The notes: generated from the sequence alone by a model not told the origin. A stretch of 32,000 bases of DNA from Neisseria weixii (GCF_002327085.1 NZ_CP023429.1:2004383-2036382); one strand, 5' to 3'; positions 19,935 to 25,683 are shown, numbered from the stretch's first letter. Translations and numbers: made by a program.

Positions 19935-20151
19935 GCTTATTTGTAATCAGCAATATAAGCTGTGCCAACCGGTGTCAAAAAGACATTTAGGTTAAAGCGC
20001 ACTGATTCTTGAATAAATAAAACCGCAAAAAATCTTCCCCACCAAAACATAACCCTAAAAAAAACCGCTAAATAAAAAGTTTTTATGGTTATAACCAGAA
20101 TAAAATAATAAAATCAACCTTAATTTAAGAATATACCCAAAAGGTTTTACT

Positions 20152-21363
20152 ATGATTAACCGCCCAAACTATCTCCAACAACTCAAGCCTTTTATCGATA
20201 CCCCTTTAATCAAAGTCATTACAGGCATTCGCCGTTCAGGAAAATCAACGGTGATGAAATTATTGCAAGCGGAATTGATTTCCCAAGGTGTTGATGAGCA
20301 AAACACCATTCATATCAATTTTGAAAGCTTCGCATTCAGTGAATACAAAACCGCCGAGAAGCTCTACGCTTTAGTTAAAGAAAAAATCCAAACAGCGGAG
20401 AAATATTATCTACTGCTTGATGAGATCCAAGAAGTTACCGACTGGGAAAAAGCGGTCAATGCCTTTATGGTAGATTTCAATTTGGATTTATACATCACCG
20501 GCTCTAATTCGCATTTGTTGTCATCCGAGCTTTCCACTTATCTTGCAGGGCGTTATATAGAAATTCCGATTTTCACGCTTTCATACAAAGAGTTTCTGGA
20601 TTTTAAAGCAGCTTATTCACAAGAAAACATTGAAAATTCAACCACACTTTTCAATGAGTATCTGCAAAAAGGCGGTTTCCCCATGGTGCATACGGCGGAT
20701 TATCCGCAAGAAGTTGCCTATAAAATCGTTCAAGATATTTATGCGTCTGTGATTTTGCGCGATACCGTGCAACGCCATAAAATCCGTGACGTTGAACTAT
20801 TGGAGCGCATTGTGAAATATGCGTTTGACAATATCGGAAATACATTTTCAGGCAAAAATGTGGCCGATTATTTCAAAAGCCAGCAACGCAAAGTCGATTT
20901 AAATACGGTATATAACTATCTCAAAGCACTAGAAAGTGCGTTTATCTTGCACCAAGTAGAACGCTTTGATGTGAAAGGCAAAGAGATTTTGAAAACCCAA
21001 GAAAAATTCTATTTGGGCGACGTATCTTTGCTTTATGCCACAATGGGCTTTCGCACCAGCTTAATTGCAGGCATTTTGGAAAATCTGGTCTATCTCGAGC
21101 TCAAACGCCGTGGTTATCAGGTATATATCGGCAAACTCGGCACCAAAGAAATTGATTTTGTGGCACAAAAGCAAAATGAAAAGCTCTATATTCAAGTTGC
21201 CTATAAATTAGAAAATGCACAAACCGTTGAACGAGAGTTTTCGCCCCTACAAGCCATTGCCGATAACCACCCGAAATATGTGATTACCATGGATGATTTT
21301 TGGCAGGAAAATATTGATGGCATTGTGCATCAGCATATTGGGGATTTTTTGTTGGGAAATTAG
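20152..21363 (+). CDS. COG1373-type AAA+ ATPase with a DUF4143-like C-terminal domain (403 aa)
   Basis: Walker A GIRRSGKST and Walker B YYLLLDEIQ. Overall layout matches the AAA_14/DUF4143 family (recalled). Confidence 0.8.
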   Translation: MINRPNYLQQLKPFIDTPLIKVITGIRRSGKSTVMKLLQAELISQGVDEQNTIHINFESFAFSEYKTAEKLYALVKEKIQTAEKYYLLLDEIQEVTDWEKAVNAFMVDFNLDLYITGSNSHLLSSELSTYLAGRYIEIPIFTLSYKEFLDFKAAYSQENIENSTTLFNEYLQKGGFPMVHTADYPQEVAYKIVQDIYASVILRDTVQRHKIRDVELLERIVKYAFDNIGNTFSGKNVADYFKSQQRKVDLNTVYNYLKALESAFILHQVERFDVKGKEILKTQEKFYLGDVSLLYATMGFRTSLIAGILENLVYLELKRRGYQVYIGKLGTKEIDFVAQKQNEKLYIQVAYKLENAQTVEREFSPLQAIADNHPKYVITMDDFWQENIDGIVHQHIGDFLLGN

Positions 21364-22746
21364 AAAGAAATATTTATGCTATATGAATTTAATAAACATA
21401 TTCTTGATGATAGAAGAATGAATAATTTATTTCATGGTCAAGAATCAATTTGTTTACAAGCTTGGGCTTAGAGTTACAAGAAAAATCTCAAGTAGATTAC
21501 CGCTTGCTATATGGTAGAGTGCTCCCATATGATTTTCAAAATAATCAGTGGATATCAGATTTATCTAAACATAATAAAATGGTTTCTATTAACGGGGAAT
21601 TAAAAGCTAGAATTATTTCTTTTCAGCTTACTACATCCGCAGAAAATTTAAATACATTCATTACCAGCTTGCTTCAAGGAAACTCATTTTTAGAAGCCTC
21701 CGAAAAAATCTTGGTGGATATAGCTGAAAAACAGCAAGAAATTTTTGATTCATTAAAGCTTTCACCTCCGTATTGCATTAGACCGGTCATGCATTTACCT
21801 CCAAGAGATAATTACGTCTGGAATACCTCTAAAGTTAGCCCAAACTCTGATGCTAGCTATGATAGTGCAGCAATTAGTTTATTAGAAAAAACAAATTTTT
21901 GGAACATATTAGGTATATCAAGAAGCAAGAAAATTCTAGAATTGATTAATGAAAAGTTAAAAGGTGAAAATCTAGATATAGGTGGTATTGATGCTTGGAG
22001 ACTTGGAGATTTAGAGTTTCTTTTTGCCCTAGTCTTAATAGTCAAGAAAAACCAAAATTCCATTTAGATTTAAAGAAAAAAATACATTAGAAATTTTTGA
22101 AGAAATATCTGAACACTCTTTAGTTGCTATATTAAAACTTTTTAATGGCGATAGTTTACTTTTTACATCAATACAAGAGTTTAAAATAACTAACTATCCA
22201 TTTAATTTAGACTTTCACATAAATGAATCTTGCAATGAGATATTTGACTCTTACACATTTGAATTATTTGAAAAAAGTGATTCCAATATTACGATATTAG
22301 CCCAAGAAGGGCATCCACTAGTACGTTCAATACAAGTTCAGAGCAATGTTATATCAAATATCTCAAATACCGAAAATGATCCTTGGTTACAAAAAGGTTT
22401 ACCAAATTCATCTCTAAATAAAGCTAAAAGCTTCACATCCATAGAAAGGTTAACTAATCATTGTTCTGAATTTTCAGTTGGTAACGATAAGAAAGATCCA
22501 TGGTTCGATTCTGATATTGAAATTACCCGCTATCTAAAAACAGTGTTACCACAATCAACTGACGCACACTTTTTCCCTAAATTGGTACTTAATGGCGAAA
22601 GTCGGCTTGACTTAGTTGCATGGTTGAAAAAAATAATAAATAAACATCCTAATGCCCAAATTGCTTGGTTTGATCCTTTTATGGAAAATGTAGGGATAAA
22701 CTTATTAAATCGACTAGGGTTTAACTCAGGAGATTATATTATTTTT

Positions 22747-23453: not shown

Positions 23454-25402
23454 TTATTTTTACATCAGAGGCAGGTGAAGAAAATAATAGAATTCAGAAT
23501 TTAATTAAACAATGTGAGAATTGGTCTGAAACAATAGGATGTGTAAAATTAAAAGTCATTGGGCTTGATAAGCTACACGATAGAATGATATTAATTCGTG
23601 CAAAAAATGGCAAGCCATTAGCGGGGTACCATTTATCTAATTCTATCCAAAGGGCTAATGAAAATAACCCATTGTTAGTTACTGAAATCTCTCTAAATGT
23701 ACTATATCCTGTATTCTCTTATGTAGATGAATTAATTCAATCTCAAAATGTAAGTAATAAACCTGCTATTTTTGATTCTACAAAATATCAATCTAAAAAT
23801 CAACAAGAAAAACAATCATTTGATTCTGAATCACCTTATCAATTTCCTAAATTAGGTTGGGTATTAGCAAAATGGTGGAGAAAACCAGAATTAGAGCATT
23901 TGTCTGGAAATGAGTTAAAAGCTAATTTACATTCTATAGAGTTAGATTTTGAAAGTCACCAAGAAAATATTCAGATATTCCATTAGCTTTTTTTGGCGAT
24001 TTATTCTCATCAGAGAATTTTGTAGAAGAATGGGATGCATTTGGCTGTTTGCTTGCCCATATTCCTGCTGAGAAATGTGTTTACGAAATAGGAAATCTTA
24101 ATATATCAACCACATTAGTTGATAATTTATTATCTTATCTGGATCCTACAAGGAAAAATTCCCTATCACTTAGATGCAAAACTATCGTGTTAGATCTAGA
24201 TAGCTATTTGGCGATGAGCTTTGATAAATTAATATTTAATGAATACCCAGAAATCATTTTTCAATATGATATAAATGAAATTTCTTATAGTGATTATTAT
24301 GCAATTAAATTTTTATGGAATTTAGCTCCTGAAGCTATTATCAATTGGCTAGATGAACAATTATCATCCTTTGACAAAAAGAATAGCCAACAAAGAGCAT
24401 TGATTACTGATGCTTTACGATATATTTGTGGTGATTTCGAATGTCTAAATAAATGGATTATGCTTTTTAGAAGCAATCATCATTTGCTTCAATGGATAGG
24501 TATATATAAAATAATTTCTTTATTTTTTGAGAGTAAAATAGATGAATATAAAATTTGTCAAATTATTGATAGACATCCCACGCTGGATAAAACCAAAATA
24601 TTTTTATGGGTTATCAAAAAATCTGTTTTCAGAAACAATGAATTTAAACCTATATTTTTGTCAAAAGCTATAGAATTTAGCGAACCTATGGATAATGACC
24701 GTCTTGGAGAGCTTTTAAATATTTTACGAGGAAGACTAGGCAAGCTATATCATATATATTTCTGGATTCTAGAATATGTGCTAGAAAATATGGTAAGTCA
24801 AAGACTTATTTCTTATAATCAAATAATGAATTACTGGCTTGAAGACTTAGAGATAGACTGGTTCAAAGCTATTAAAAACAATCACGAGCATATTCATTTC
24901 AGATTTGCACTTGAAGGAAAGTTTTCTGATGAACTTGTCTATCTATTTTCTAAATTATCTGATTTCTAAATTATCTGAAGATGAACAAATTTTAGTATTA
25001 TCTAGATTTGATAAGATAATCAACTCAGAGATAAGAATTATCAGAAAACCTTTAGCAAGAACATTAAATTACTCTTTATATACCAATGCATTTAAAGTAA
25101 ATATTTGGATATTGGCAATATTTAATAGGTTATCTAGACTGAAATTATCAAAAGAAAATATTAAGGAAATAGAAGATAAAAAGGAATTATTATCAGACAT
25201 TTATCAGAGGTATTCATTAAATGAAGATAGTGATAGAGAGCTATTGAGTTACTATGCAGAATAGTAAATTTTATTATTCTAAGCGCTATCTAAAAATCAA
25301 ATTTAGATGGCATTCTTTTACCTAAAATCGGTAAAAAATCTGTAAATTTTGACTAATATTTTGCCACTTTTCGCTTCTTCTTTGCTTCATCAAGCTAAAT
25401 AA

Positions 25403-25436
25403 AAACAGCCTGAGAACATCATCTCTCAGGCTGTTT
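25403..25436 (+). terminator. Stem-loop downstream of the large AT-rich gene
   Basis: 13-bp perfect stem AAACAGCCTGAGA / TCTCAGGCTGTTT with an 8-nt loop, followed by a T-rich stretch. Confidence 0.5.
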
Positions 25437-25683
25437 ACTATTTAATGATTTCGTTTTTTAATAATACTTAGCAAATCACTTTTCGGCACAAACAACATTG
25501 GCTATTTGTCCCACCCTTTAGATTGTATTGCACGCTTAACATCTAATCCAAATCATGCAATAAAGCGTACCCTATTCCGATAATAATGGTATTACCTTCA
25601 ACTAAAGCGAAATCAGTGACGACTGGGTACTCAGCATTCCTATGGCAATTTTTTTGGGGTTAAAGCCGCCACCACCTTTCGCT

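Follow-up and report, generated by a model that had tools for sequence, protein, structure and literature searches.

A decayed copy of the antiphage gene Juno next to an intact PDC-S01 ATPase gene in a low-GC island of Neisseria weixii

Does a low-GC island in the chromosome of Neisseria weixii encode a new two-gene defense system, or do its genes belong to families that already have names? The island spans positions 19940-25660 of the window, by which we mean the whole 32,000-nucleotide stretch of DNA that was analyzed (GCF_002327085.1 NZ_CP023429.1:2004383-2036382), and lies between an AEC-family transporter gene and miaB; it contains an ATPase gene followed by the fragments of a very large gene. 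The original prediction, made from the sequence alone, had read the two as a candidate uncharacterized two-gene system of defense type and foreign origin, now inactivated by a mobile element. We find that the locus is probably a decayed, horizontally acquired cassette, in which an intact and independent PDC-S01 ATPase stands next to a dead copy of the single-gene antiphage system Juno.

The identity of the large gene emerges from its repair. Four raw fragments lie colinearly on the NCBIfam profile NF040699 (VPA1262 family), at profile positions 7-191, 227-626, 632-980 and 969-1026, while the fragments give no Pfam match at E ≤ 1 and no PADLOC match. The open reading frame (ORF) repaired in silico has 1,053 codons, in agreement with the single frame of about 1,050 codons that had been expected, and scores 737.5 bits over profile positions 2-1026, compared with 765.8 bits for the intact ortholog of Neisseria sp. 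CCUG12390 and a curated cut-off of 325. By these matches the large gene is a full-length member of the VPA1262/Juno family, and with an NF040699 match of 737 bits here and a PDC-S01 match in the ATPase (see below), the description “uncharacterized” does not hold. The family has recently been renamed Juno and described as a single-gene antiphage system in E. coli, where the Vibrio parahaemolyticus (VPA1262) and Pantoea agglomerans (WP_397323501.1) proteins, each alone, lower the plaquing of T4, BASEL35, BASEL45 and lambda-vir by more than 100-fold; the report gives no mechanism, domain architecture, PLD-like domain or partner gene for Juno (bioRxiv 10.64898/2026.08.01.741415, August 2026).

The true start of the gene is ATG 21376, which aligns to residue 1 of intact homologs and lies 12 nt beyond the ATPase stop, as had been predicted; a TTG at 21450, where the NCBIfam profile begins, was considered and rejected as the start, since homologs align from the ATG. 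The Shine-Dalgarno sequence ahead of Juno (window 21366) reads AAAGAAAT here versus AAGGAAAT in CCUG12390, Basfia and the third N. weixii strain, a change that may be one more minor mark of decay or may simply vary among strains. A genome scan located the intact ortholog of CCUG12390 at the corresponding chromosomal position, flanked by the AEC-transporter gene and miaB, and the same ATPase precedes it by 12 nt. The repaired protein has 93.4% amino acid identity with this ortholog and 75.8% with the one from Basfia succiniciproducens; the intact relatives of 1,054 residues recovered by protein search come from Basfia succiniciproducens (76%) and Mannheimia (75%). Residues R136, H140, W432, D434, P435, H497, D498, R499, S517, N518, S519 and Q521 do not vary in either of two alignments, of 38 and 102 sequences, in which the window gene is represented by the repaired ORF or by its 76%-identical homolog. 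The window ORF thus shares with the Juno family a full-length profile match, a length of ~1,050-1,100 residues, the invariant residues and placement within an accessory island. It differs in being a pseudogene and in belonging to a very AT-rich Pasteurellaceae/Neisseria sub-clade, in which a DUF4143 ATPase ancestrally preceded the gene and which is only ~30-35% identical to the other members recovered (Vibrio coralliilyticus, Pseudomonas), the two phage-tested proteins lying outside this comparison.

The upstream ATPase retains its Walker A (GIRRSGKST) and Walker B (LLLDE) motifs and matches Pfam AAA_14 (4.8e-32) and DUF4143 (1e-18), the latter a domain of the PD-(D/E)xK class. In PADLOC, model PDLC04787 (PDC-S01) covers residues 1-402 with an E-value of 2.8e-164. 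PDC-S01 is a single-gene defense candidate comprising an ATPase fused to a PD-(D/E)xK domain (PMC12988326). The defense-type nature proposed for both genes is upheld by family assignment, PDC-S01 for one and Juno for the other. Relative to PDC-S01 at large, the window gene has the full-length hidden Markov model match, both Pfam domains and the intact Walker motifs; the family is usually found as a stand-alone gene, whereas this gene and a few relatives have Juno within 12 nt downstream. The ratio of nonsynonymous to synonymous divergence (dN/dS) relative to the CCUG12390 ortholog is 0.07, and the ATPase remains under strong purifying selection. A protein already recorded for N. weixii matches it with 100% identity. 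Matches to the family number 7,837 proteins at E ≤ 1e-60, and the protein is strongly conserved across distant taxa, at 63-77% amino acid identity in environmental metagenomes and ~69-70% in metagenome-assembled genomes of Bacteroidia and Kapabacteria, a sign that it has spread horizontally, very widely and recently.

Are the two genes partners? A related ATPase is found within 10 kb at 0 of 35 distant Juno loci, and Juno follows the ATPase at 0 of the 45 ATPase loci, among 83 sampled, in which the sequence extends 1.5 kb or more downstream. Most of these loci are without any tightly coupled downstream gene, and a 90%-identical ATPase of Pasteurella bettyae stands alone, adjoining GmrSD and SIR2 genes. 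The pair is confined to a Juno sub-clade at least 61% identical to the window copy, represented by four intact pairs and one with a decayed ATPase; intact homologs next to the ATPase are a property of the closest relatives (CCUG12390, Basfia) and not of the 35 distant Juno loci. Either gene can also decay while the other persists. In N. weixii it is Juno that is dead, next to an ATPase with the low dN/dS given above; in loci L040 and L041 the degraded gene is the ATPase, a divergent one (36% identical) in the same position, and Juno is intact. The L040 arrangement, with the ATPase in pieces (5299-6404) directly upstream of an intact Juno of 1,079 residues, is a mirror image of that in the window; the L040 contig also carries CTD12, MC8 and DUF2326 genes. 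No ATPase gene is present at the Juno loci of Mannheimia varigena, M. indoligenes, L130 and L133, with Juno intact in the two Mannheimia species and L130, and split in L133.

The genes also differ in their divergence: amino acid identity to Basfia is 90% for the ATPase and 76% for Juno, and synonymous divergence (dS) between the two Neisseria genomes is 0.42 and 0.067, respectively. Because co-occurrence is absent at the loci sampled outside the sub-clade, decay is independent, and GC content, divergence and dS all differ, we conclude that the ATPase and Juno are best described as two autonomous modules traveling as a cassette rather than as obligate partners. An obligate two-gene system, as initially proposed, finds no support in validated Juno proteins that work alone, in 0/35 and 0/45 paired loci, or in genes that each decay singly.

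Base-level alignment to the CCUG12390 allele reveals exactly six lesions in the window copy of Juno (Table 1). Four are single-base deletions (G4 to G3, C4 to C3, A8 to A7 and A5 to A4), in place of the three shifts in A/T runs originally proposed; the others, an IS1595-family insertion sequence (IS) with its target duplication and a 16-bp repeat, are found as described there. A placement of the second frameshift in a T5 run was rejected, as comparison with the intact allele puts the shift in the C run. The IS and its target duplication add 715 bp, and the empty site in CCUG12390 has a single TTATTTTT. The transposase matches Pfam DDE_Tnp_IS1595 (5.4e-28) and NCBIfam NF033547 (2.6e-38), and carries a frameshift in its own ORF (22764-23282 and a further piece upstream). 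With its DDE_Tnp_IS1595 transposase, length of ~0.7 kb, 18-bp inverted repeats and 8-bp duplication the element conforms to the IS1595 family, from which it departs in the broken transposase frame; we take it to resemble the IS1016-like elements of Neisseria.

Comparison of N. weixii assemblies separates the lesions. A second assembly (GCA_042658245.1; locus L045) has no substitutions relative to window positions 18713-30193 (11,485 bp compared) and differs only at four homopolymers, each of them shorter by one base in the window: the G, C and A5 sites in Juno and an intergenic site at ~25652-55. A third, slightly divergent strain (L134) has G4 and C4, shares the A7 frameshift and the IS site, and carries private Juno lesions of -1 at window 22309 (L134 10159) and -9 at 22354-62 (L134 10203). 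Since the G, C and A5 contractions are not seen in the second assembly, nor the G and C contractions in the third strain, they are probably homopolymer under-calls, which weakens the view, initially entertained, that all frameshifts are true mutations. This pattern suggests that under-calling in the source assembly is systematic and could create false frameshifts elsewhere in the genome. The inactivating events that are securely real are the A8-to-A7 frameshift, which we accept because it is common to all three assemblies, the IS within the PLD-like domain, and the 16-bp duplication. The dN/dS of Juno is 0.46 for the window copy versus CCUG12390 and 0.21 between intact alleles. Judged from these alignments, the copy is a pseudogene whichever way the homopolymers resolve, and its inactivation by a mobile element, as proposed, is confirmed by an IS at the same site in three assemblies. 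Since L134 has private deletions, the pseudogene has gone on decaying separately in different strains after the shared IS and A7 events. At L133 (5001-8190), the Juno homolog P0016 (64% identical) is split into ORFs of 645 and 356 residues, which would be a second, independent pseudogenization of Juno.

AlphaFold2 (AF2) was applied to the intact Basfia Juno with 102 homologs in the alignment. The full-length model, with a mean predicted local distance difference test score (pLDDT) of 84.3, comprises a beta-rich N-terminal region (~1-315), an alpha/beta domain (~395-560) and an all-alpha C-terminal region (590-1054); the latter is predicted to be solenoid-like and, at ~460 residues, agrees with the helical C-terminal part foreseen originally. 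Foldseek with the full-length model returns weak, domain-confounded matches in the PDB (including PPK1 and FAM83) and among viral structures, and a domain-only model (residues 392-566, pLDDT 85.4) was needed for a clear result. With that model, all named high-probability matches in the PDB are folds of the phospholipase D (PLD) superfamily (probability 0.77-1.0, E 7e-5 to 1.6e-2), among them the TrmBL2 C-terminal domain, MITD1, SauUSI, the NgoAVII R-protein and PPK1, as well as FAM83, vaccinia F13, Tdp1, PLD3 and PssA. Two motifs in this domain, H497-D498-R499 and S517-N518-S519, are invariant in the 102 homologs. In the AF2 secondary structure, the invariant K-L-H-D-R lies between a beta-strand and the M-I-L-I-R strand, and S-N-S between the next strand and a helix. 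From this secondary structure we take HDR...SNS to occupy the HxK, xxxxD and GSxN points of the PLD fold. A search with hhalign finds no second PLD repeat in the N- or C-terminal parts of Juno, so that an active site would need dimerization.

Several observations weigh against an independent ATPase beside a single-gene, PLD-based Juno, and they concern the pairing, the predicted domain and the standing of PDC-S01. As to the pairing, the ATPase lies directly upstream of Juno, at a distance of 5-12 nt, in the window, CCUG12390, Basfia and L042; 3'-end remnants of it persist just upstream of Juno in Mannheimia, L130 and L133; and a different ATPase lineage, only 36% identical to the window protein, holds the same position in L040. 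Because of the remnants at these further loci, the pair is ancestral in the Pasteurellaceae/Neisseria sub-clade, and only there, with repeated loss of the ATPase. Such findings would be expected if the sub-clade genes formed a co-transcribed two-gene system with the ATPase as sensor, regulator or co-effector. We consider this unlikely, given that Juno alone works in E. coli (bioRxiv 10.64898/2026.08.01.741415), that intact Juno occurs without a functional ATPase in Mannheimia, L130 and L040, and that the N. weixii ATPase has kept a dN/dS of 0.07 after the death of Juno; the solitary P. bettyae gene, the 0/35 and 0/45 counts, and the differences in GC (0.39 vs 0.29) and dS point the same way. 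It is also conceivable, although in our judgment improbable, that Juno of this sub-clade recruited the PDC-S01 ATPase as a working partner, giving a previously undescribed two-component variant. The ATPase might then gate or trigger the H-x-R PLD-like phosphodiesterase of Juno, and the reciprocal decay would reflect a toxin/regulator-like dependence rather than independence. Taken broadly, functional coupling of the two proteins within the sub-clade retains a small share of our expectation.

As to the domain, Foldseek TM-scores are only 0.4-0.5, and the best structural matches include several PLD-like domains without catalytic activity (TrmBL2, MITD1, FAM83). The canonical HxK(x)4D(x)6GSxN motif is not found in Juno, which reads K-L-H-D-R-M-I-L-I-R...G-Y-H-L-S-N-S, with His kept, Arg in place of Lys, Arg/Gln in place of Asp, and SNS in place of GSxN; nor is there a PLD match at the sequence level, either in Pfam at E ≤ 1 or with family profiles from full-length and domain alignments run against PDB sequences. 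For these last two reasons we describe the predicted domain as PLD-like without assigning it to the PLD family: what survives of the initial PLD reading is the fold around HDR, not the canonical motif or a sequence-level match. The domain might instead be a non-catalytic binding or oligomerization module, as in MITD1, FAM83 and TrmBL2, with the effector in the N-terminal beta-rich region, where R136, P137, H140, P142, D206, W208, R209, D212 and E214 are invariant. The replaced Lys and Asp and the missing second repeat would fit this possibility, which we hold to be doubtful yet worth keeping in view; the His, the Arg and the Ser-Asn-Ser are absolutely conserved at the topological positions of PLD catalysis among sequences 26-76% identical, and the dimerizing single-HKD nucleases SauUSI and NgoAVII are also among the best matches. 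Quite unlikely, in our estimation, is an island with no role in defense, in which the ATPase would serve to maintain a mobile element and Juno would act as a toxin or in some other conflict that does not involve phage. PDC-S01, although ranked the fourth most common prokaryotic “defense”, is still unvalidated (PMC12988326), and the evidence on Juno is one preprint with over-expression in a surrogate host; in that same preprint, however, two independent homologs protected against four phages (bioRxiv 10.64898/2026.08.01.741415), and both families occur in defense-rich islands (GmrSD and SIR2 next to the ATPase; GMT and Pantoea hotspots). It is hardly credible that Juno is alive in N. weixii, with frameshifts that are sequencing errors or phase-variable tracts and expression in some cells: three of the four single-base frameshifts are indeed missing from an otherwise identical assembly and the remaining one sits in an A7/A8 tract, but all three assemblies have the IS, at least two have the 16-bp duplication and the A7 frameshift, and the private deletions of the third strain and the elevated dN/dS (0.46 vs 0.21 for intact alleles) all speak for a dead gene.

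In the reading that we prefer, a decayed cassette of independent modules, a small defense cassette of Pasteurellaceae type would have inserted between the AEC-transporter gene and miaB, the ATPase being an independent module that traveled with Juno in one sub-clade. In intact Juno, the helical region might sense a phage cue, and two PLD-like domains, one from each chain of a homodimer, might come together in the manner of Nuc, BfiI, NgoAVII and SauUSI to form a phosphodiesterase site that would cut nucleic acid. What Juno would share with such single-HKD nucleases (Nuc, BfiI, the NgoAVII R-protein and the SauUSI N-terminal domain) is the predicted fold, the His and Ser/Asn points, and one domain per chain, which would imply dimerization; it differs in having H-D-R-x4-R...S-N-S instead of H-x-K-x4-D...G-S-x-N, in being without sequence-level similarity to them, and in embedding the domain within a protein of ~1,050 residues, between beta-rich N-terminal and alpha-solenoid C-terminal regions. 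The N. weixii copy was destroyed by the A8-to-A7 frameshift, the IS1595-family insertion and the 16-bp duplication, followed by strain-wise decay.

For both genes the closest relatives come from Pasteurellaceae, with the nearest intact relatives of Juno in Basfia and Mannheimia; the GC content of the ATPase gene is Pasteurellaceae-like, and all hosts examined carry an AT-rich Juno. Between N. weixii and CCUG12390 (20016-25314 vs L003 8643-13213), the DNA of the island shows 94-99% identity, as compared with 84-86% for the flanking core genes. These relatives, the GC content of the ATPase gene and an island identity above that of the flanks together indicate that the cassette was acquired from Pasteurellaceae and afterwards exchanged among Neisseria species, in line with the foreign origin first suggested. 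The ATPase gene is ~90% identical and Juno ~98%, with an abrupt change at ~21350, at the gene junction; in the final 150 bp of Juno (25100-25249) the value is 81%. Given these steps in identity, the cassette is a recombination mosaic.

The borders and composition of the island are consistent with the features first noted for it. From 0.48-0.535 in the flanks, GC content goes down to 0.394 (ATPase gene) and 0.294 (large gene), a drop that had been estimated by eye. The DNA uptake sequence (DUS) dialect of the window is AG-DUS, AGGCCGTCTGAA, with 28 copies versus 0.2 expected, and zero copies fall across 19914-27063, as befits an island proposed to be DUS-free. At the core density of ~0.86 clusters/kb, computed with the island gap and a prophage gap left out, ~5 clusters are expected per 5.7 kb, with a Poisson P(0) of ~0.007. 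The only other DUS gap of comparable size (12555-18851) coincides with the prophage, a filamentous (Nf/MDA-like) element at window 10653-18804, directly upstream of the AEC-transporter gene. It contains Rep_trans (17197-18306), Zot (12561-13796) and an IS110-family transposase (11077-11772), with TspB split into two ORFs (14084-14848 and 14914-15663), and is absent in Neisseria sp. CCUG12390 and in N. weixii assembly GCA_003813805.1.

Table 1 Features of the low-GC island and its borders, in window coordinates; strands and remarks as indicated.
Feature	Position	Strand	Remarks
DUS-bearing hairpin terminator of AEC-family transporter gene	19902..19934		Final DUS ahead of the island
AT-rich leader and promoter region of the island	19940..20151	+	105-bp indel at ~19994 versus Neisseria sp. 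CCUG12390
AAA_14 + DUF4143 ATPase, intact, 403 aa	20152..21363	+	Stop 21361-21363
Intergenic spacer, 12 nt	21364..21375	+	ATPase stop to Juno ATG 21376
Juno (VPA1262-family) pseudogene	21376..25264	+	Repairs to 1,053 codons; GC 0.294
G3 run, frameshift (G4 to G3)	21464..21466	+	G4 in the other two N. weixii assemblies
C3 run, frameshift (C4 to C3)	22027..22029	+	C4 in CCUG12390 and the other two N. weixii assemblies
A7 run, frameshift (A8 to A7)	22076..22082	+	Common to all three N. weixii assemblies
Predicted PLD-fold domain coding region, Juno residues 392-566	22546..23785	+	Split by the IS after ...GDYIIF
8-bp target-site duplication TTATTTTT	22739-22746 and 23454..23461		
IS1595-family IS, 707 bp	22747..23453	-	18-bp perfect inverted repeats; same site in all three N. 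weixii assemblies
Invariant H-D-R; invariant S-N-S	23576-23584; 23636-23644	+	Within the predicted PLD-fold domain region
A4 run, frameshift (A5 to A4)	23964..23967	+	A5 in CCUG12390 and the second N. weixii assembly
16-bp tandem duplication, TTTCTAAATTATCTGA x2, frame-shifting	24947..24978 (units 24947-62/24963-78)	+	Also in the second N. weixii assembly
Bidirectional terminator-like hairpin, Juno end/convergent miaB	25403..25436		
miaB	25684-27012	-	Convergent to Juno

Here a member of a recently described single-gene antiphage family has decayed beside a very common candidate defense ATPase; the locus is not a new two-gene system. In N. weixii it is a relic that says little about the biology of the host beyond the turnover of defense genes, and it records the transfer of a defense cassette from Pasteurellaceae to Neisseria, its spread between species and its rapid decay. 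For the newly reported Juno family, a predicted single PLD-fold domain with invariant H-D-R/S-N-S provides a concrete, testable lead to a catalytic site. The intact CCUG12390 and Basfia alleles, with and without the linked PDC-S01 ATPase, constitute a natural test set that can show whether this common, unvalidated candidate acts alone or modulates its neighbor.

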